Shown: positions 48,364-57,738, counted from the first letter of the stretch. The stretch: 64,000 bases of DNA from Acidimicrobiia bacterium (GCA_965203555.1 CBDBCY010000004.1:800001-864000), one strand, 5' to 3'. Notes: generated by a model not told the origin, from the letters alone. A program made the numbers and translations.

Positions 48364-49029
48364 GTGATCCAATCCTCCGCTTCCCCCTCCCCGACCACCC
48401 CCTTGGTGGAATTGGTCGATCTCTCCGTTTCGTTGGGCGGGGTCCGAGTACTTTCGGATTGCCGACTCACACTCCATCCCGGTGAGTGCCTGGGGGTGGC
48501 AGGACCAAACGGCGCCGGGAAATCGACGCTGCTGGCCACGGTAGCCACCTTCATCTCCCCCGCCGAGGGCGCCGGAACGGTCATGGGGGTTCCCCTCGGT
48601 ACACCCCGAACCCCGGCGGTACGCTCCCGGATCGGATGGTCCGGGCATCTCCCCGCCCTTTATCCCGACCTGACTCTTGGCGAGAACCTGACCATGGCCG
48701 CCCGGTTGAGTGGCCGCTCCGCCAACGACGGAGATCGCGCCCTCCAGAAGGTGGGATTGGGACGGGCTCGCAATATACGTGTGGAGAGGTGCTCCAACGG
48801 AATGAAACGAAGAGCCGACCTGGCCCGGTTACTGATCGGCCGGCCGCGCCTGGTGCTGCTCGACGAACCCGACGCCGGCCTGGACCGGGACGCCGCTTCG
48901 ATCATCACCCACTTGATCAGTAGAACCACCAGCCGGGGCGGCGGCGTGCTGTGCGTCTCCCACGATGCCGCCCGATTGTCGGGCTGGGCAGACCGGGTGG
49001 TGGAGATCAGGGAGGGAAGGATCAGATGA
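48364..49029 (+). CDS. ccmA: Heme ABC exporter ATPase CcmA
   Basis: GPNGAGKS, CSNGMKRR, LLDEP; operon context. Confidence 0.85.
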   Translation: MIQSSASPSPTTPLVELVDLSVSLGGVRVLSDCRLTLHPGECLGVAGPNGAGKSTLLATVATFISPAEGAGTVMGVPLGTPRTPAVRSRIGWSGHLPALYPDLTLGENLTMAARLSGRSANDGDRALQKVGLGRARNIRVERCSNGMKRRADLARLLIGRPRLVLLDEPDAGLDRDAASIITHLISRTTSRGGGVLCVSHDAARLSGWADRVVEIREGRIR

Positions 49030-49703
49030 CGGCCGGTTTCTGGAGGTCCGCATCAATCATTGCCCTGCGCGATCTCCGGGTTGAGATTCGAAGCGGAGAA
49101 GCTCTGTCGGTGGTCTTTCCGTTCGCGGTCGTAGCCACCTGGGTGGTGCCCCTGGCGACCGACGCCTCCCGGAGTTTGCTCAGGGATCTGGCTGCTCCCG
49201 TCTACTGGCTGATCTTTCTGCTGTTCGGAATGATGATCGTTTTCCGGCAGACCGCGGTGGAGACATCGGACCAAAGGCGCGTGCTGGCGCTGACGGGCCT
49301 TGACCCGGCTGCCCGGTTCGCAGGCCGCTCAGCAGCGTCGGCACTGATCCTGGTCCCGATATCGGGGACGCTGGTCTTTCCGATCATCGTGCTCTACGAC
49401 TACCGGCCTCCGTCGGGAACGATCCTGATGGTCCCAGTGATCATCCTCGCCGCGGCAGGAATATCCATGTTGGGGACCTTGGCCGCAGATGTAACCGTGG
49501 GATTGAGGGCCCGCACCAGCCTCGCCCCCCTGCTGATGGCGCCCTTGGCCGCTCCCCTCCTGATGGGCGCTTCCCAGGCCCTGGAAAGCTTGATCGCCGA
49601 ACGCGGTATCATCATCTGGGTACTGGTGCTGGTTATCGCTGACCTGGGGTTGGCCGCCGCCGGAGTCATGTCGGCCCGGGCCTTGGAGGAAATCGCTCTG
49701 TGA
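49026..49703 (+). CDS. ccmB: Heme exporter permease CcmB
   Basis: RDLRVEIRS, multiple TM segments, LAPLLMAPL. Confidence 0.85.
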   Translation: MTAGFWRSASIIALRDLRVEIRSGEALSVVFPFAVVATWVVPLATDASRSLLRDLAAPVYWLIFLLFGMMIVFRQTAVETSDQRRVLALTGLDPAARFAGRSAASALILVPISGTLVFPIIVLYDYRPPSGTILMVPVIILAAAGISMLGTLAADVTVGLRARTSLAPLLMAPLAAPLLMGASQALESLIAERGIIIWVLVLVIADLGLAAAGVMSARALEEIAL

Positions 49704-50404
49704 AAAAGAAGGTTCTCGCCACCCTGACCGTCCTGGCGTTGGCGGCGGGTCTGGCCACTGCATTCACCTCACCCCCCGACGTCTTGCAGGGTGACTTCGT
49801 TCGGATCCTCTACATTCACGTTCCTTCAGCCTGGTTGGCTTTTCTGGCCTTCGGAGTCACTGCGGTGGGAAGCATCGGGTGGCTGTTCACCCACCGGATG
49901 GGTTGGGACCGGGTGGCTGAGGCGTCTGCGGAGACGGGCGTGCTCTTCACGGCCGTCGCCCTGGCCACCGGGATGATCTGGGGAAAGCCGGTCTGGGGCA
50001 CTTACTGGGATTGGGGTGACGCACGATTGGCCACCACCGCCCTGATGTTCTTCGTCTACCTGGGCTACCTGGCACTGCGTCGCACCACGTCCGACCCCTA
50101 CCGTCAGGCCCGTCGTTCATCGGTATTGGGAGCGGTGGCGGTCGTGCAGGTGCCGCTGGTCTATTTTTCGGTGAAACTGTGGCGCACCCTCCACCAGGGT
50201 CTCACCATCCGCCCCGACGGCATCCAAATGGACGGCGCCATGGTCACGGCACTGCTGGCGAACCTGGGAGCTTTCACCTTGCTTTACCTGACTCTGATCA
50301 GCTTCCGGACCGAACTGGCCCGACTTGAGAAAGCTGTTCACGAATCGCAGGTCTCGGTCCAAAACCGTGTCACCGTCCCCCAACTGGGTAAAGCAGAAGC
50401 GTGA
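49700..50404 (+). CDS. ccmC: Heme exporter CcmC
   Basis: YIHVPSAW, WGKPVWGTYWDWGDARL (WWD domain), WRTLHQ. Confidence 0.92.
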   Translation: MKKKVLATLTVLALAAGLATAFTSPPDVLQGDFVRILYIHVPSAWLAFLAFGVTAVGSIGWLFTHRMGWDRVAEASAETGVLFTAVALATGMIWGKPVWGTYWDWGDARLATTALMFFVYLGYLALRRTTSDPYRQARRSSVLGAVAVVQVPLVYFSVKLWRTLHQGLTIRPDGIQMDGAMVTALLANLGAFTLLYLTLISFRTELARLEKAVHESQVSVQNRVTVPQLGKAEA

Positions 50405-50511
50405 ACGCCGGTTGGGTATGGGCAGCGTATCTTGCCACGGGCCTGATCCTGGCGGGCTACGTTCTCCGCCTGGTGGTCCGGTGGCGGAGGGCGACCGGTC
50501 GCCGCGACTGA
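50401..50511 (+). CDS. ccmD: CcmD-like small membrane protein (absent from the ORF track)
   Basis: GTGA overlap with ccmC and TGATG overlap with ccmE; MNAGWVWAAYLATGLILAGYVLRLVVRWRRATGRRD. Confidence 0.75.
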   Translation: MNAGWVWAAYLATGLILAGYVLRLVVRWRRATGRRD

Positions 50512-50918
50512 TGAAGGTACGCCGCTGGCCGTTTTTGATCTCGGCGGGGGTGGCCATCCTGATAGCCGGCTTCTTCCTGGTGCAGAACATCGGCAACGAC
50601 CTGGTCTACTACCTCACTCCCCACGAAGCCGTGACCCAGCGCGCCGACTTCACCGACGGCCGGCGCTTCCGGTTGGCGGGCGTCGTGGTGGAGGGGTCGC
50701 TGCGGGAAGGTAGCGATCCGCTCAGGTTCGAACTCACCGATGGCGCTTCCACCATTTCCGTCCTTCTCACCGACACCCCTCCTCTCCTGTTCGACGAGGA
50801 TGTGAACGTGCTGCTGGACGGGGCTTGGCAAGATGATCACTATCGGGCGGACGGGGCACTTGTATCCCATGATGAGAATTACGAGGCCCCTCCGGTGACC
50901 GGCGTCTCGGAACCCTGA
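50511..50918 (+). CDS. ccmE: Heme chaperone CcmE
   Basis: LVYYLTP, RFRLAGVVVEGS, SHDENY (HxxxY). Confidence 0.9.
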   Translation: MKVRRWPFLISAGVAILIAGFFLVQNIGNDLVYYLTPHEAVTQRADFTDGRRFRLAGVVVEGSLREGSDPLRFELTDGASTISVLLTDTPPLLFDEDVNVLLDGAWQDDHYRADGALVSHDENYEAPPVTGVSEP

Positions 50919-52966
50919 TGCTCTCCTTCTCCGGAACCCTGGCGGTGTGGGCGGCGCTGTTCGGCGCGGCCTGGCTGACATTGACGGCTTGGCAGGCGGC
51001 CAGGCGGCGCTCTTTCTCCGTAGCCGTTCTCCGTAGGCCGATGCTGACCATGGTCCTGGCTGCCGTGGCCGCCATGGTGGTCCTGCTCGCCGCCCTGCTG
51101 GCCAACGATTTCACTGTCTCCTACGTGGCGAACCACCATTCCCGACATACCCCTTTTCCCTTCAACATCGCCACTGCCTGGGCGGCTCTGGAGGGCTCTA
51201 TAGTGCTCTGGGGGCTGGTGCTGGCCGGTTATGCCTACTTCGTCTGGCGACGAGCCACCACCAGAAGTGGGCAGCCGGACGCCTTGGACTGGGGCGCCCT
51301 GGCTGCTATCGCAGCGGTGGGGGTGTTCTTCTTCGGATTGATGGCTACGGTGGGCAATCCCTTCGAGGTGTGCGTGGAGGCCACCTCCCGCTCCTGCGCC
51401 GTCTCCAGCGCCATACCCTTCTCCCCGGCGGTGGGGCCTGCTGACGGCGCCGGCCCCAACCCGCTCTTGCAGAACCATATCTTGATGGCTATTCACCCAC
51501 CGCTTCTCTACCTGGGCTACGTGGGAATGACCGTTCCCTTCGCCTATGGCGTCGCCGCCCTGGCCCTGCGCCGACCCGGTTCGGAGTGGCTGCGCCGAAG
51601 CGGCATGTGGACCAGGATCAGCTGGGTGTTTCTCACCGCCGGCATCACCCTGGGCGCCTGGTGGGCTTACGAGGTGTTGGGCTGGGGAGGGTATTGGGCG
51701 TGGGACCCGGTGGAGAACGCCTCTTTCATGCCCTGGCTGGTCGCCACCGCCTTCCTGCATTCCTCCCTGGTGCAGGAGCGCAGAGGAATGTTGGAGGCGT
51801 GGAATTTCGTGCTGGTGATCGGAACCTTCTCCTTGACCATCCTCGGCACTTTCCTTACCCGTTCCGGAGTGATCGCTTCGGTCCATTCCTTCACCCAGTC
51901 GGCGATCGGCCCGGCGCTTTTGGGATTCCTGGTGGTGGTGGTGGTGGGCTCGTTCACTTTGTTCGCGGCGCGCGCCCAGTTGATCTCCTCACCTCCCCGG
52001 TTGGAGTCCCTTTCCAGTCGGGAGGGGAGTTTCCTGCTCAACAACCTGCTCTTGACTGTGTATGCAATGGTGGTGCTGACCGGCACCATCTATCCGCTGG
52101 TGCTGGAAGCCTTCACCGGTTCTGAGGTGGGAGTGGGGAGGCCCTTCTTTGATCGTCTGGCCGTTCCCATCAGCTTTGCCCTGTTGCTGGCGATGGGTTT
52201 GGGACCCGCCCTCCCCTGGCGGGTGGCCCGGCCCAAAATAGTGTGGCCCCGGATACATCTTCCCCTCCAAGTGGCGTTGGGAGTCGCAGCGGTGGTGGTG
52301 ATGACCGCCACCGCGATCGGCTATGTGGTGCTGGCGGTGCTGGCGGGCAGCTGGGTGGTGGCGGTGGCTGCCTATCGCCTCTGGGCCCAGGCCCGTCGGA
52401 TCGCCGGATCCAGAGGAACGGCGGTTCACAGGCAGTTGGGAAGAGTCGTCCGGTCCGATCGAGGGTTCTGGGGAGGCCAGGTGGCTCACGCCGGGGTGGC
52501 GTTGGCGGCGGTGGCCATCGCCACCACCGCCAACCTGGGGCAAACCCTGGACCGGGTGGAGCTGACGCCCGGGGACCGGGTCGAGTTTGCCGGGTACCAG
52601 TTGCTCCACACCGGCGTGGACACTGCCAGGACGCCAAACCGTCTCACCAGTTCCGCCGCCGTGCAGGTCTGGAAGGACGACGCATTGCAGGGACTGGCGA
52701 GACCTTCCCTGAGCCAATTCGAGACCTCGGCTCTGCCGATTGCCACTCCCGGGATACATCGCACCTTCAAAGAGGACCTCTACCTGAGCCTGACCCGCAT
52801 CGACGAGCAGGGCATCACCCTGCGGGCGGCCACCGCTCCCCTCCAATGGGTGCTGTGGGTGGGCGGCCTGCTCTGCGCGGCGGGAGGTCTCTATTCGCTG
52901 GTGGGACGGAACCGTCGCCGGTCCGCCTCCCCGGCCCGGATGAAGGGACCCCGCCCGCGTGGATGA
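50918..52966 (+). CDS. ccmF: Cytochrome c heme lyase CcmF
   Basis: WAALEGS, NPLLQ..HPPLLY, WAYEVLGWGGYWAWDPVEN, SVHSF. Confidence 0.95.
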   Translation: MLSFSGTLAVWAALFGAAWLTLTAWQAARRRSFSVAVLRRPMLTMVLAAVAAMVVLLAALLANDFTVSYVANHHSRHTPFPFNIATAWAALEGSIVLWGLVLAGYAYFVWRRATTRSGQPDALDWGALAAIAAVGVFFFGLMATVGNPFEVCVEATSRSCAVSSAIPFSPAVGPADGAGPNPLLQNHILMAIHPPLLYLGYVGMTVPFAYGVAALALRRPGSEWLRRSGMWTRISWVFLTAGITLGAWWAYEVLGWGGYWAWDPVENASFMPWLVATAFLHSSLVQERRGMLEAWNFVLVIGTFSLTILGTFLTRSGVIASVHSFTQSAIGPALLGFLVVVVVGSFTLFAARAQLISSPPRLESLSSREGSFLLNNLLLTVYAMVVLTGTIYPLVLEAFTGSEVGVGRPFFDRLAVPISFALLLAMGLGPALPWRVARPKIVWPRIHLPLQVALGVAAVVVMTATAIGYVVLAVLAGSWVVAVAAYRLWAQARRIAGSRGTAVHRQLGRVVRSDRGFWGGQVAHAGVALAAVAIATTANLGQTLDRVELTPGDRVEFAGYQLLHTGVDTARTPNRLTSSAAVQVWKDDALQGLARPSLSQFETSALPIATPGIHRTFKEDLYLSLTRIDEQGITLRAATAPLQWVLWVGGLLCAAGGLYSLVGRNRRRSASPARMKGPRPRG

Positions 52967-53393
52967 CCAACCGACCGTCAAGCGGCGTCTCCGGCGGCTC
53001 TCCCCCCTGGTCACGGTAGGGCTGGGGATCTTCATACTGGTCTCGGTCGTAAACGCCGACCCTATAGCTCAAGACCGTTCCGAGCGCCTGGGAAAACAGG
53101 TGCGCTGCCCGGCCTGCGAAGGGGAATCCATAGCCGAGTCGCCCAGTTCCTACGCAGCCGACATGATGACCTACGTGCGTGAACTGATAGACGGGGGGCT
53201 GTCCGACCGGCAAGTCTTGGACCGGTTGATGGCGTCATACCCGGATTCCCAGTTACTCGATCCTCCGCTGAGAGCCGGCACTGTTCTGTTGTGGCTTGTT
53301 CCCGCCGCCGCCTTGCTGGCCGGTGCGGGCCTGGCCGTATCCCGCCTCCGCAGGCGGCCGATCTTCTGGCCGGATGGAGATCCCGGTGAGTGA
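52959..53393 (+). CDS. ccmH: CcmH
   Basis: VRCPACEGESIAES, LLWLVP. Confidence 0.9.
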   Translation: MDDQPTVKRRLRRLSPLVTVGLGIFILVSVVNADPIAQDRSERLGKQVRCPACEGESIAESPSSYAADMMTYVRELIDGGLSDRQVLDRLMASYPDSQLLDPPLRAGTVLLWLVPAAALLAGAGLAVSRLRRRPIFWPDGDPGE

Positions 53394-54174
53394 GGAATCC
53401 AAGTGGCAGCGGCGATTCGACCAGGCCTCCCGGGATCTGGAAGAGTTGGAACTGCAGCTCGCCCAGGGTGAGATACCCGCGTCAACCGGTAGGAGACTGC
53501 AAGAGACATACCGGGAGGAGATGGAGGAGGCCCGGCGCGGCATTGGGGATGCAACACCAGGAGTGGACCCCGACTCGGCGCCTGCCGGGGAGGACGTCCG
53601 GTCCACGGGATTCTGGAACCAGGGAAGGATCTTGGTGGCGGTCATTCTGGCGGCCGCCGCCTTGGCGTTGGTGGTTTCAGTGGGTTGGTTCGCCCGGCCC
53701 GAACAGCAGGTCGCTTCCGACCAGGAGTTCGATCCGTCCAGTTATTCCAACGAGACCATGGAGGCGGTGATCGCCGCCAACGCCGATCACCCCCGGATAA
53801 ACGGGATGCGCCTGGCCCTGGCAGCGCGGTATTTCCAGGCGGGAGAATTCTCGGGCGCCTTTGCCCATTACCGGGAAGTATTGGAACGCGACCCGCTCCC
53901 CGGCGAGGAGGCCGAGGCTTTGAGACGCCTGGGTTGGATGGCCTGGGCGGGTTCGGGAGAAGTTCAGTTGGCCGTCGAGACCCTGGACCGGTCCCTGGTC
54001 GTGGTCCCAAACCACCCCCAGACCCTCTATTTCAAGGCCATTGTCCTCTGGTGCGGCGCCGGACAGCATCAGGAGGCTGTTCCGCTATTGGAACGAGTTG
54101 TCGAAGCTCTGCCCGCCGAGACCGAAGTCGTCGCCGAACTGGCCGCCGCCCGGGAGGGAGAAACGTGTCGGTGA
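53386..54174 (+). CDS. TPR membrane protein (CcmI/CycH-like)
   Basis: RDLEELE..GEI, TM helix, TPR-like helices; position in the ccm operon. Confidence 0.75.
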   Translation: MSEESKWQRRFDQASRDLEELELQLAQGEIPASTGRRLQETYREEMEEARRGIGDATPGVDPDSAPAGEDVRSTGFWNQGRILVAVILAAAALALVVSVGWFARPEQQVASDQEFDPSSYSNETMEAVIAANADHPRINGMRLALAARYFQAGEFSGAFAHYREVLERDPLPGEEAEALRRLGWMAWAGSGEVQLAVETLDRSLVVVPNHPQTLYFKAIVLWCGAGQHQEAVPLLERVVEALPAETEVVAELAAAREGETCR

Positions 54175-54725
54175 GTTACAAGCCCGGCCGGGCGGTGATG
54201 GCTCTTGCGGCACTGGTGGTGGTCTCGACTGCGGTTGTCGCCGGGGTTTTTGCCTCCCGACTCTCAAACGACCCCCTATCAACCCCCTCACCGCTGATCG
54301 GCAGGCAGTCACCCATCTTGACCCTTCCGTTCCTGGACGGATCGGGGGAACTCGCCATCCCGGATCCCGAGGCCGAGGTGACCATCATCAACTTCTTTGC
54401 ATCCTGGTGCCTGGAGTGCCGGGTGGAGCATGCCGATCTGATGGCGGTGGCCGATGCCTTCTCCGGGGCGGGAGTCCGACTGGTCCAGATCGCCTACCAG
54501 GATCGCACCACAGACGCCATCGCCTTCGTCAACGAGATGGGAGTTTCACCCCTGGTCGGCTACGTTTCCGACCCCGGCAGTCGCGCAGCCATCTCATTCG
54601 GGGTTTTCGGGGTGCCGGAGACTTACGTCATCGGACCGGACGGCACGGTTACGGAAAGGATCACCGGACCGACCACCGCCCTGCAGTTGGGTGAACAGAT
54701 AGACCGCGTGCTGGGCGCCGGGTAG
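54171..54725 (+). CDS. ccmG: CcmG/DsbE thioredoxin
   Basis: SPLIG, INFFASWCLECRVEH, GVFGVPETYVI. Confidence 0.88.
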   Translation: MSYKPGRAVMALAALVVVSTAVVAGVFASRLSNDPLSTPSPLIGRQSPILTLPFLDGSGELAIPDPEAEVTIINFFASWCLECRVEHADLMAVADAFSGAGVRLVQIAYQDRTTDAIAFVNEMGVSPLVGYVSDPGSRAAISFGVFGVPETYVIGPDGTVTERITGPTTALQLGEQIDRVLGAG

Positions 54726-54748: not shown

Positions 54749-56143
54749 CTACGGGATCAACTCGAATAGCACTCCCGGCGGTGGGGCCTGGGTCAGGTCT
54801 CTGCCGCCCACGCCCATCAGGTGGCGGTCAAAAAACGAGACCAGGTAACGGTCGACGATGGCAAAGACCTGAGCCGCGGGCATGGAACCTCGCAACCCGA
54901 ACCAACCTCCCACCGGGGAGATCGCCGGCGCCGCGGTCAGATCGCTGTGTACGGTGTTTTCGATCCCAATCCAGTAGGTGCGCCGGTTGCTGCGTTCCAC
55001 CAGACCCCTCAGCACCCCGTCATTCTCCAGTTCTCGCCAAGGGTCGGACCGAATGAACATGGAAGGCACATCCAGTTCTGTCGAGAGTTCCGAGGCGGTG
55101 ATCGGCTCGACCCACCCGTCCAGGGAGGCCACAACCCGACACCTGGTATCTACCAGACAGGTCCTGACTGCCGCTCCTCCGCCGAGAGAGTGACCGTAGA
55201 TTCCCAGGCGTTCCATATCTGCAATCCCCGCCAATGATCCGAATGGTCCGCTCACCCCCTCTTCCAAGCCGGCGATGACCATCAAGAGATCATCAGAGTA
55301 GGTCTGCAGAATCCTTATCGCCGCTACTTCGAACGCATCATCGCCTACTTCGTCCAGATCGGGAAGCGCATCGGGATCCAATCCGACCACCTCCCCGTCC
55401 GGAAATACCGTGGCCACCGACCCGTAAGTGTGGTCGACTGATATGACCAGGTACCCGTGGCTGGCCAGGGACTCCATTTGGTGCACTGCCGCGTTGCGGA
55501 ACAGTCGCCATCCGTGTGAATAGAGAATGACCGGGATCTTTCCCTGATAGGGCAGGGCTTGCTCGTAACTGTGAGCGCCCGTATAGCGGGTGTGATCGAG
55601 AAGGAAGCCCGGGATGCCCAGGGTTTCGGCCAGAGCCGGTCCCACTACTTCCAAGTCCTCGATCCAGGGACTGAGCGGTTCGGCATCCCCTGATACTCGA
55701 CCGGGATACCAGACCTGCACCATCACTCGCCGGAATTCGCCAGGATTGGCCCCGTAGTCCTCGAGTCGATCATCGCTGCGGATCTCAAAGCTGCGGGTGG
55801 CAATCTGATAGGGTCCGGTCGGCGGAGGCATTTCCACGATGGGCAGGGCCCACAGCGGAATGATCACCAGCATGATTCCGACCACACCCAAGACCGCCCT
55901 GCGGATACGCTGGTAGGACTCCAGCCGTCTCTCACCGGCCAGCAGATCACCCAGTGCCATCCCGAGGGCCACTGCGTACAAACCCCACAGTTGCCACCGG
56001 AATCCCTCCACCAGAAACTGCATCGACCCACAGGCCGACAGCACCACCGCCACCACCCCTCTGGGGAGCCGCTTGCCCTCCAACGCCGGCCAGATGATGG
56101 CCAGTACACAGGTCCCGGTAAGCAGTACCTCCCAGAGTCTCAT
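54749..56143 (-). CDS. Membrane-anchored alpha/beta hydrolase (PAF-acetylhydrolase-like)
   Basis: VQVWYP, YSHG, LASHGY..DH, GHSLGG, LDGW. Confidence 0.85.
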   Translation of the reverse strand: MRLWEVLLTGTCVLAIIWPALEGKRLPRGVVAVVLSACGSMQFLVEGFRWQLWGLYAVALGMALGDLLAGERRLESYQRIRRAVLGVVGIMLVIIPLWALPIVEMPPPTGPYQIATRSFEIRSDDRLEDYGANPGEFRRVMVQVWYPGRVSGDAEPLSPWIEDLEVVGPALAETLGIPGFLLDHTRYTGAHSYEQALPYQGKIPVILYSHGWRLFRNAAVHQMESLASHGYLVISVDHTYGSVATVFPDGEVVGLDPDALPDLDEVGDDAFEVAAIRILQTYSDDLLMVIAGLEEGVSGPFGSLAGIADMERLGIYGHSLGGGAAVRTCLVDTRCRVVASLDGWVEPITASELSTELDVPSMFIRSDPWRELENDGVLRGLVERSNRRTYWIGIENTVHSDLTAAPAISPVGGWFGLRGSMPAAQVFAIVDRYLVSFFDRHLMGVGGRDLTQAPPPGVLFELIP

Positions 56144-56200
56144 GAAACCTCAGTCACGTCCGTTGGAACCAGGAACCGTGACGGACCGGTTACCGAGTGT

Positions 56201-57055
56201 TCAGCCCGATACGGAAAGCAGCTCTTCGATGGCGCTCCTCAGGGAAGATTCACCCTGAGCACCGAACAGCGTCTGGACAATGGTCTTGTCGGCGCCGACC
56301 AGAACGGTCACCGGCTGGTAACCGACTCCATAGGCCGAAAAGATCCGCTCCTCCTGGTCCAGGCCCCACTTCACTGCTCCGCTGGTCAAAAGCTGCCCGG
56401 CTCTTTGTGAGGTGTCCGACAGGCCGGCCTTCCAGGCCGGAGCCACGAATGCCACACGATCCTGGTACTCGGTCGCCAGTTGATCCACGACGGGCAACTC
56501 CCGTCGACAAGCCGGTCACCACTCGGCCCAAAACACCAGGTAGACAGGCCGCGGTTCGGCAGAAAGGGTGAAGGTTCCACCGTTTCCCAACTCCAAGGTG
56601 AAATCGGGTGCGCCTGGACGATCATGAGCCTCGGTCGTGGTGGTCGTGGGAGCAGCCGTAGAAGTGGTAGTGATCGCCCCAGTGGTTGTCGGGGGTTGGG
56701 TGGTGGGAGCGGCAGTCGTGGTGGCGACAGTGTCCTCGTCGGTCACAACCGCCACCGTGGTGGTGACGTCCGTGTCAACCTCCTCAGCCGCCGTCGTCTC
56801 TGCTGCCACCGTGTTCGTGGTTACCGCCCCGCTGGTCGGCGCCGGATCGTTGTCGCCCAAAGCGGGATCCTCAACCCCTGAAGAAGGTTCCTCCACCGGC
56901 TGGTCCAAGGTCGACTGGGTGGTTGGCGCGGCACCGGCGCTTTCGATCTGTGGGTCCGTATCTTCCGAACCACATGCGCTCCACACCAGTCCGCAAAGTA
57001 CCCAGACAGCCAACCTCACCCGGCCAGGGGGTTGGGAAGGCTTTGTGCGGCTCAT
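56201..57055 (-). CDS. Predicted selenoprotein: TlpA-like thioredoxin lipoprotein with U-P-A-C motif (in-frame UGA at 56516-56518), 284 aa
   Basis: Lipobox WSAC, Thr-rich linker, APDFTL..VFWAEW-TGA-PACRRELP continuing in frame into 56201..56497. Confidence 0.85.
56488..56506 (-). promoter_or_regulatory. SECIS-like hairpin
   Basis: CGACGGG-AGTTG-CCCGTCG starting 9 nt after the UGA. Confidence 0.65.
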
Positions 57056-57651
57056 CAGGCGTCAGCCAACAGGGTGTCGAGGACCTCCCGGATCGCATCG
57101 GGGTTCCTGGCTCCGCGCCAAGTGGAGACCAGGGAGCCGTCGGCCGCGATGATCGCCCCGGCCGGCTGTCCTCCCACACCGTAGGCGGCGAAAACCTCCT
57201 GCTTTCCATCCAACCCCCACAGGACCTTCCCTGAAGGCAACAGACGATCTGCAACCTGGGTGGTATCTTCCAAACTCGACTTCCAGGCCGGCGCCACCAC
57301 CACGACCCTCCCTTCGTATTCCCCGGCCAACTGGTCGAAAGCGGGCAACTCCCGCCTACAGGTAGGTCACCACTCAGCCCAAAAGATCATAAGGACCGGG
57401 GTGGTCTGGTCCGAAAGAGCGAACGTCCCGCCATCGGCCAACTGCAATGTGAAATCGGGCGCCGGCGGCCCGAGAAGTTCATCCGTGGTTGTCGGGGTCG
57501 TGGTTGCAACTGTGGTTTCGGGAGAGCTGGTCACCGCGGCGACGGCCTCCGCCGGTTCACTGCTGTCCGAACCCCCGCCCCCGCAGGAGGATACGACCAA
57601 ACCAATCAGCAACAATACGGCTGTCCAAGACCAGCGCCCGCCGCGATTCAT
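57055..57651 (-). CDS. Predicted selenoprotein: TlpA-like thioredoxin lipoprotein with U-P-T-C motif (in-frame UGA at 57367-57369), 198 aa
   Basis: Lipobox VSSC, APDFTL..IFWAEW-TGA-PTCRRELP continuing in frame into 57055..57348; TGATG coupling to the next gene. Confidence 0.85.
57339..57357 (-). promoter_or_regulatory. SECIS-like hairpin
   Basis: AGGCGGG-AGTTG-CCCGCTT starting 9 nt after the UGA. Confidence 0.65.
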
Positions 57652-57738
57652 GTGAAAAAGTATAGGTGAAAGACGGTCTTTACACCGCGGGTGAAAGTGC
57701 TCACCGGATTTGCGCCGGTGGCGCCCGCCCTGGGTTCT

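Follow-up and report, generated by a model that had tools for sequence, protein, structure and literature searches.

In Escherichia coli, the selenocysteine insertion sequence (SECIS) of the fdhF type is a stem-loop 3' of the UGA codon with a GGUC-containing apical loop that is read by SelB. The general model for bacterial SECIS elements (bSECIS), which is used by bSECISearch and summarized in the review PMC13188914, calls for an upper stem of 4-16 bp that is closed by an apical loop of 3-9 nt, a G in loop position 1 or 2 that is usually followed by G or U, a spacing of 16-37 nt between UGA and loop, and a minimum free energy of at most -7.5 kcal/mol. On the protein side, UxxC TlpA-like selenoproteins are tabulated in the same review as 'thiol-disulfide isomerase-like' (cd02966), they trace back to the Sargasso Sea study (PMC1088965), and many thioredoxin (Trx)-like and peroxiredoxin (Prx)-like UxxC families are found in the Global Ocean Sampling (GOS) study (PMC2398784). 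Here, two tandem genes, A and B, are described on a 64,000-nt stretch of DNA from an Acidimicrobiia bacterium (GCA_965203555.1, CBDBCY010000004.1:800001-864000; this whole stretch is called the window in the following), each of which contains an in-frame UGA with a short hairpin directly behind it. Sequence comparisons make it very likely that each hairpin is a SECIS in the coding region of a gene for a UxxC thiol-disulfide oxidoreductase.

The BSepDB paper makes no mention of TlpA, isomerase-like, Actinobacteria or Acidimicrobi. In a full-text literature search on selenoproteins and Acidimicrobiia, no title referred to the FWAEW-U-PxC family described below, although figures and supplements lie outside the scope of this statement and the subfamily may be catalogued there.

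Two hairpins that follow in-frame UGA codons

In both genes the UGA (56518..56516 in gene A and 57369..57367 in gene B) is followed by a 9-nt spacer, CCGGCTTGT and CCTACCTGT, respectively, and then by the hairpin (Table 1). In both cases the first loop base is at +17, counted from the UGA, with 9 unpaired and 7 stem nucleotides in between. The three outer pairs differ between gene A and gene B (C-G against A-U, G-C against G-U, and A-U against G-C) with pairing retained, and the switch of an Arg codon from CGA to AGG goes together with a Val to Ala change (GTC versus GCT). The first-pass annotation of the window had pointed to the two hairpins, their equal spacing, the three outer-pair changes and the Arg switch, and all of these match the sequence exactly.

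The hairpins are read as SECIS because they agree with the published bSECIS model in all four respects: a 5-nt loop closes a 6-7-bp stem, G and U occupy loop positions 2 and 3, 16 nt separate the loop from the UGA, and both free energies (Table 1) are below the limit. Like the elements covered by this model, they are situated within the coding region directly 3' of the UGA for selenocysteine (Sec), with no difference in kind; peculiar are the spacing at the very minimum of the published range and the A-G-U-U-R loop, which is almost invariant in the gene family. The element is thus a regular bSECIS; the subfamily that carries it is new, but belongs to a selenoprotein class that is already known. 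It shares with the E. coli fdhF type the location 3' of the UGA and the G-U in the loop, whereas the first loop base is A instead of G, no bulged U is evident, and the conserved part consists of the 19-nt hairpin only. A search of Rfam with both strands of the region 56100-57700 and E values up to 10 gave no family and only five matches at chance level. A transcription terminator or attenuator was considered and rejected, because a T run is missing and the element lies within a conserved reading frame.

Among 300,000 random positions of the genome, 443 have a 7-bp stem (G-U pairs allowed) with a 5-nt loop at this fixed offset. Since two sequences alone are weak evidence, the case for more than chance rests on the comparative data.

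Selenocysteine machinery and encoded proteins

The window is part of a 3.42-Mb metagenome-assembled genome (MAG) of Acidimicrobiia (4 contigs, 62% G+C, 95% complete), which contains the complement of genes for Sec decoding. A tRNA-Sec was detected by ARAGORN and by the Rfam model RF01852 (78.7 bits versus a gathering score of 47), selA was found with 348 bits, and selB is a 605-aa frame adjoining selA that was recognized by TIGR00475 (281.9 bits, cut-off 242.25) and by SelB-wing_3 (60.6 bits). The gene selD (379.8 bits) has one in-frame TGA of its own.

Genes A and B are arranged in tandem, with the ATG of gene A (57055-57053) overlapping the stop TGA of gene B (57057-57055) by one base (TGATG). 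Gene B ends with two consecutive in-frame TGA codons (57052-57057, minus strand); with the internal TGA read as Sec and the terminal TGA TGA as stop, the same codon would serve both roles in one gene. The proteins share 54% identity. If TGA is read as U, the active sites become FWAEW-U-PTC in gene B and FWAEW-U-PAC in gene A, in both cases followed by RRELP. Lipoprotein-type signals are present at the N-termini (…VVSSC in gene B, …VWSAC in gene A; the lipobox was judged by eye), and the products are probably lipid-anchored, outward-facing UxxC reductases. In gene A an unusually long, Thr/Pro/Ala-rich low-complexity linker (residues ~23-143; 56627-56990, minus strand) extends from the lipobox to the thioredoxin domain, and the wide range of open-frame lengths among orthologues (196-531 aa) suggests that the length of this linker is variable.

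Both proteins belong to the thioredoxin fold according to Pfam, since the scores for Redoxin (PF08534, cut-off 26.6) and AhpC-TSA (PF00578, cut-off 26) exceed the gathering scores in gene A (41.4 and 40.4 bits) as well as in gene B (52.5 and 54.7 bits). The nearest NCBIfam entries are ResA, TlpA and DsbE, and every curated cut-off is missed by far. The best NCBIfam match is the ResA subfamily NF002854 with 51.5 bits for gene A and 51.6 bits for gene B versus a cut-off of 170, and the ResA-like WAxxUGC family NF041054 (WAxxUGC_long) reaches 27.3 and 32.9 bits versus 300. Because of these distances to the cut-offs, the genes were filed neither as ResA proper nor as WAxxUGC members. The latter family is close, but genes A and B carry FWAEW-U-PxC instead of WAxxUGC. 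What they share with the described UxxC TlpA/ResA selenoproteins is the fold (Redoxin/AhpC-TSA), a Sec in place of the first Cys of CxxC, and the existence of Cys homologues.

Conservation, covariation and codon choice in the family

A class-wide search with the domain of gene B gave matches in 59 of 301 genomes, all from the order of the window. Hence, among the genomes searched the subfamily is confined to one order of Acidimicrobiia, and it is tandem-duplicated in the genus of the window. The homologues contain exactly one TGA at the position of the first Cys of the thioredoxin-fold CxxC, and the protein similarity extends about 100 residues beyond it. A locus search in genome contigs yielded only four related loci. 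Three of them, from MAGs of Acidimicrobiia or without classification, are close orthologues with Sec, and the fourth is a distant Cys homologue of Dehalococcoidia. For the alignment, every [WFY]-[*/C]-x-x-C site with open flanks was extracted, which gave 122 rows from 94 loci. The FWA[ED]W context was present in 107 rows, 104 with TGA and 3 with TGC; the remaining 15 comprised 12 distant Cys paralogues of the WASWC type, which were used as control, and 3 spurious frames, which were dropped. The 104 Sec rows correspond to 101 distinct 48-mers from 82 loci.

The alignment is ungapped and the spacing of 16 nt between UGA and loop is found in all 104 Sec homologues. In the register of genes A and B, 53 of them form seven contiguous pairs and 41 form six, i.e., at least six pairs are present in 94 of 104. 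The loop reads AGUUG in 89 and AGUUA in 11 homologues, with AGUUU, AGCUU, AGCUC and AAAUG in one each; G is found at loop position 2 in 103 and U at position 3 in 101 of the 104 sequences. Some genomes of the same genus contain three tandem Sec paralogues (L037:650-2721, L039, L041, L043, L045), the third of which (UPVC-KRQLP) lacks the 7-bp stem and instead forms a stem of 4-5 bp in a shifted register, CGGC-AGUU-GCCG. Furthermore, two short frames without TGA (G005:C2:2551756-2552055 and G002:C1:736847-737140) match only residues 40-139 of the query, after the Sec position, and sit between tandem Sec paralogues; they may represent 5'-truncated copies or diverged third paralogues.

Stem and loop are under selection at the RNA level. 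Covariation was assessed on the 101 distinct rows with 500 column shuffles and with a sliding 3' partner as controls. The 7-pair helix is paired in 89.5% of the cells compared with 80.9% after shuffling (0 of 500 shuffles as high) and 37-66% after sliding, and changes on both sides of a pair were counted in 80 cells versus 27.5 expected (again 0 of 500 as high), distributed over five of the seven pairs. Pair 14-30 exists as G-C (49 rows), A-U (40), C-G (4) and G-U (4), with 4 rows unpaired, and pair 15-29 as A-U (52), G-C (22) and G-U (20), with 7 unpaired. Column 14, at the second position of codon +4, separates Arg from Gln/Lys and pairs with column 30, a synonymous site at the third position of codon +9. 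In the other pair, column 15 is again a third position with synonymous changes, and column 29 sets Val versus Ala. Synonymous sites thus track amino acid replacements in another codon, a pattern that is not predicted by selection on the protein alone. Whole stems have also been replaced, as in GCAAAGG/CCUUUGC (L103), GCGCGGG/CCCGCGC (L118) and CGACAGG/CCUGUCG (L082).

The choice of codons in the hairpin was compared with the long open reading frames (ORFs) of the window's genome. Among 102 Leu codons at +7, TTG is used 89 times, TTA 11 times and CTN twice, with genomic shares of 15.1% for TTG and 1.2% for TTA. Arg at +5 is encoded by CGG in 96 rows and by AGG in one (CGG 30.5% in the genome), Glu at +6 by GAG in 98 and by GAA in one (GAG 59%), and Pro at +8 by CCC in 93 of 104 (36.6%). 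At codon +9, GTG is nearly absent with two cases, compared with 42% in the genome.

Loss of the hairpin in cysteine orthologues

The three Cys orthologues with FWAEW-C-PxC, L053 (genome G024), L083 (G219) and L100 (G098), continue with NKELPVI, RLELPIV and NVEMPII, respectively. They have two, one and three contiguous pairs left in the register of the stem, their loops read AGCUG, AGCUG and AGAUG, and the position of Leu +7 is CTG or ATG. The 12 distant Cys paralogues (WASWC-xPC) show one to three contiguous pairs. A hairpin equally conserved in Cys orthologues had been named beforehand as the outcome that would speak against a SECIS, and this outcome was not observed in either group. The hairpin was lost wherever Sec became Cys, and since the Cys orthologues keep similar residues without the stem, it accompanies the UGA and not the protein motif.

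In a quick tree search, for which branch support was estimated only by the Shimodaira-Hasegawa-like approximate likelihood-ratio test (SH-aLRT) and which was rooted by the distant paralogues, the 107-row family forms a single clade (SH-aLRT 99). The Cys forms are nested in it at two places: G098 is sister to a Sec gene from G162 (SH-aLRT 94), and G024 and G219 stand together (SH-aLRT 90). This topology is consistent with two independent Sec-to-Cys switches within the Sec clade. A search for SelB-wing_3 was negative in G024 (95% complete) and G098 (97% complete) and positive in G219 and the two checked genomes with Sec genes. Since G219 retains SelB, its switch to Cys is not accounted for by a loss of the Sec trait as a whole.

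Evaluation of alternative explanations

Collectively, the SECIS interpretation put forward in the first-pass annotation is strongly supported by the presence of the machinery, the covariation in 104 Sec homologues and the failure of Cys forms to keep the hairpin. Several points nevertheless weigh against it. SelB-wing_2 (PF09106) was not detected in the selB of this genome, and both SelB binding and Sec insertion are predictions from sequence. Whole 66-nt windows around the two hairpins fold no better than dinucleotide shuffles (z of -0.50 and +1.06), and genes A and B are not independent observations, because as paralogues in the tree they have inherited the same spacing. Likewise, the shuffle control overstates the significance, since the sequences are related and many of the both-side changes were inherited. 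The outermost pair is formed in only 52 of the 101 distinct rows, RNAalifold predicts a 5-pair core only, and covariation is absent from the two innermost G-C pairs (18-26 and 19-25). Ten of the 104 Sec homologues have fewer than six pairs in register; five of these are third paralogues with nothing but the shifted stem, and the others include two with CCAGG-AGUUG-CCUG and one with the alternative GCGGG-N6-CCCGC. Moreover, the Cys control is small, with three orthologues that represent two events. Finally, stem and loop also encode the conserved C-R-R-E-L-P, so part of the conservation is at the protein level, in line with the caveat raised at the outset that the core encodes R-E-L-P.

Of the competing explanations, the one that survives best is an RNA element with a function apart from SelB binding, e.g., a ribosome-pausing or mRNA-stability element that aids recoding indirectly or has another purpose. 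The comparative data reveal selection on structure and not the identity of the binding partner, and a spacing of 16 nt lies at the lower limit of what has been published. However, the loop has G-U at positions 2-3 as expected from the bSECIS model, the hairpin occurs only where the codon is UGA, and A/G-G-U loops follow the UGA at a similar distance in 10 of 11 Sec genes from unrelated families, which points to one shared reader. This makes such an element improbable. Even less probable is that the hairpin is a by-product of the conserved C-R-R-E-L-P-V-V codons and thus an RNA structure without function. Indeed, the core GGG-AG..-CCC falls in the R-E-L-P codons, Glu and Pro are conserved in Cys homologues too, and the two inner pairs are invariant. 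The contrast between Cys and Sec forms largely refutes this explanation, since Cys orthologues with R/K-x-E-L-P have no hairpin and encode Leu by CTG; in addition, the codon choice in Sec genes is far from genome usage, and synonymous sites covary with replacements in other codons, e.g., CGA CAG…CCT GTC in L082 and GCA AAG…CCT TTG C in L103. That the TGAs are true stops or disrupting mutations in split genes or pseudogenes, or are reassigned to a standard amino acid, so that the hairpin would be irrelevant, can practically be dismissed. Standard ORF calling does end gene A at 56516 (179-aa ORF), but TGA is found at the catalytic position in 104 homologues from many genera with the protein conserved on both sides, and tRNA-Sec and selA/B/D are present. 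Reassignment was rejected in particular, because the terminal TGA TGA of gene B indicates that TGA is a stop in this genome.

With the hairpins taken as SECIS, a complex of SelB, GTP and Sec-tRNA(Sec) would engage the hairpin as the ribosome nears the UGA, with the C-terminal winged-helix domains of SelB binding the 6-7-bp G+C-rich stem and the A-G-U-U-G loop. Such binding would bring Sec-tRNA(Sec) to the A site and permit the UGA to be decoded as selenocysteine and not as stop, and the product would be a ResA/TlpA-like enzyme with a U-x-x-C active site, probably membrane-anchored and outward-facing. Genes A and B would have the hairpin in common by paralogue inheritance and would later have diverged via compensatory changes.

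Table 1. Hairpins, UGA codons and genes A and B in the window, and further Sec genes of the same genome
Feature	Position or locus	Strand	Remarks
SECIS-like hairpin of gene A	56488..56506	(-)	CGACGGG-AGUUG-CCCGUCG; -11.6 kcal/mol, 7 bp; stem CGACGGG 56506-56500, loop AGTTG 56499-56495, stem CCCGTCG 56494-56488
SECIS-like hairpin of gene B	57339..57357	(-)	AGGCGGG-AGUUG-CCCGCUU; -10.3 kcal/mol, RNAfold pairs only 6; stem AGGCGGG 57357-57351, loop AGTTG 57350-57346, stem CCCGCTT 57345-57339
In-frame UGA of gene A	56516..56518	(-)	predicted selenocysteine (translation and alignment)
In-frame UGA of gene B	57367..57369	(-)	predicted selenocysteine; aligns with first Cys of CxxC
Gene A	56201..57055	(-)	284 residues; paralogue of gene B (translation and Pfam)
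Gene B	57055..57651	(-)	198 residues; ResA/TlpA-like thioredoxin fold (translation and Pfam)
SelD	L019		GGUGC loop at +33
FdhA	L062		GGUCU loop at +19
UGSC family, two genes	L060, L133		UGSC-1: AGUUG at +19; UGSC-2: AGUGU at +19
AhpD-like	L134		TIGR01926 137.4 bits versus 81.8; GGUCU loop at +19
WAxxUGC ResA-like	L063		259 bits, below the cut-off of 300; GGUCU loop at +21
SelL-related/Prx-like	L061		only a 4-bp AGUU stem
Two ResA-like genes	L064		AGUUC loops at +35

Other selenoprotein genes and a possible second loop class

At least 11 selenoprotein genes were identified in the genome, all but A and B outside the window (Table 1); the list was obtained with a rough coding filter and is probably incomplete. 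Regarding the UGSC pair, one gene exceeds the NF041046 cut-off of 125 with 138.8 bits and the other stays below it with 71.6 bits. The AGUUG of UGSC-1 sits in another reading frame (tgG-AGT-TGc), and its orthologues are uninformative on covariation, because all that were found belong to one genus, that of the window, and hardly differ from each other in the hairpin region. The GGCC-AGUU-GGCC hairpin of the Prx-like gene is genus-specific, with AGCU in other genera, and an alternative GCCAG-N9-CUGGC fold exists. Compared with the GGUCU elements of the same genome, the loops of genes A and B are 2-4 nt nearer to the UGA (+17 versus +19 to +21), and both kinds of element are presumably read by one SelB.

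It had been proposed that the hairpin is a lineage-specific SECIS with which the selenoproteome of the genome could be mined. This idea is for the most part not supported, since the element fits the general bacterial model. As a mining tool, the literal scan for TGA-N9-stem-AGTTG-stem failed: the pattern TGA-N9-7bp-AGTT[GA]-7bp has three matches across the genome. Two of them are genes A and B, so that no other member of the set of at least 11 Sec genes is recovered, and the third is a false site at which a stop follows after 13 codons. With seven control triplets in place of TGA, 0-1 matches were obtained for each. In agreement with the general model, 10 of the 11 Sec genes have a loop at +17 to +35 that begins with A/G-G-U and closes a stem of 5 bp or more. 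The correspondingly generalized rule (5 bp or more in the stem, 4-6 nt in the loop with A/G-G-U as its first bases, position +14 to +36) also matches 552 (0.61%) of all 90,897 TGAs with AGU loops and 1,492 (1.64%) with GGU loops, together about 2.2%, and because of this background it is useful only with a coding filter. A looser rule matched 2,982 of the 90,897 TGAs, and combined with the coding filter it pointed to two more selenoprotein genes, UGSC-2 and the AhpD-like gene. A hairpin-first scan with weakly filtered read-through frames produced 236 candidates, mostly noise, and a stricter best-frame filter 423, many of which were adjacent genes in the same frame. Genome scans became useful only in combination with redox motifs or the loop rule.

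One may speculate, with considerable doubt, that the SelB of this Acidimicrobiia order prefers two classes of loops, A-G-U-U-N in addition to the classical GGUCU. In favour of this idea, the pentaloop is nearly invariant in the family at the shortest spacing that the general model allows, and loops starting with AGU occur in 6 of the 11 Sec genes, in unrelated proteins and other reading frames.

Genomic context

A System I cytochrome c maturation cluster (48364-54725, plus strand) converges on genes A and B. It contains ccmA (ABC ATPase), ccmB, a ccmC-like gene, ccmE, ccmF, a tetratricopeptide repeat (TPR) protein and a frame for a CcmG-like Cys thioredoxin (WCLEC). The gene pair is flanked by a trpD-type gene upstream and by a gene for a platelet-activating factor (PAF)-acetylhydrolase-like hydrolase downstream. 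Several related genomes have a frame for a thioredoxin-fold protein with Cys no more than about 2 kb away from the Sec genes. Because of the adjoining ccm cluster and these nearby Cys thioredoxin frames, a role in thiol reduction during cytochrome c maturation is plausible, and the substrate of the enzymes may be a component of this pathway.

Implications

The finding leaves the knowledge on selenocysteine decoding as such unchanged. Its consequences rather concern the proteins and their annotation. Since gene callers cut at the UGA, both genes are truncated or split in the annotation of MAGs, and once the SECIS is recognized, two UxxC thiol-disulfide oxidoreductases of full length are regained next to the operon for cytochrome c maturation. 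If the SelB of this order does read loops in a class-specific manner, a lineage-tuned SECIS descriptor together with a coding filter would sharpen selenoprotein calls in Acidimicrobiia MAGs, and the 19-nt hairpin would be among the most compact natural SECIS elements. Furthermore, the family represents a natural experiment, in which about 100 Sec genes with compensatory stem changes stand beside two Sec-to-Cys switches with decay of the hairpin, and it provides an example of codons that serve an RNA signal and a protein motif at the same time.

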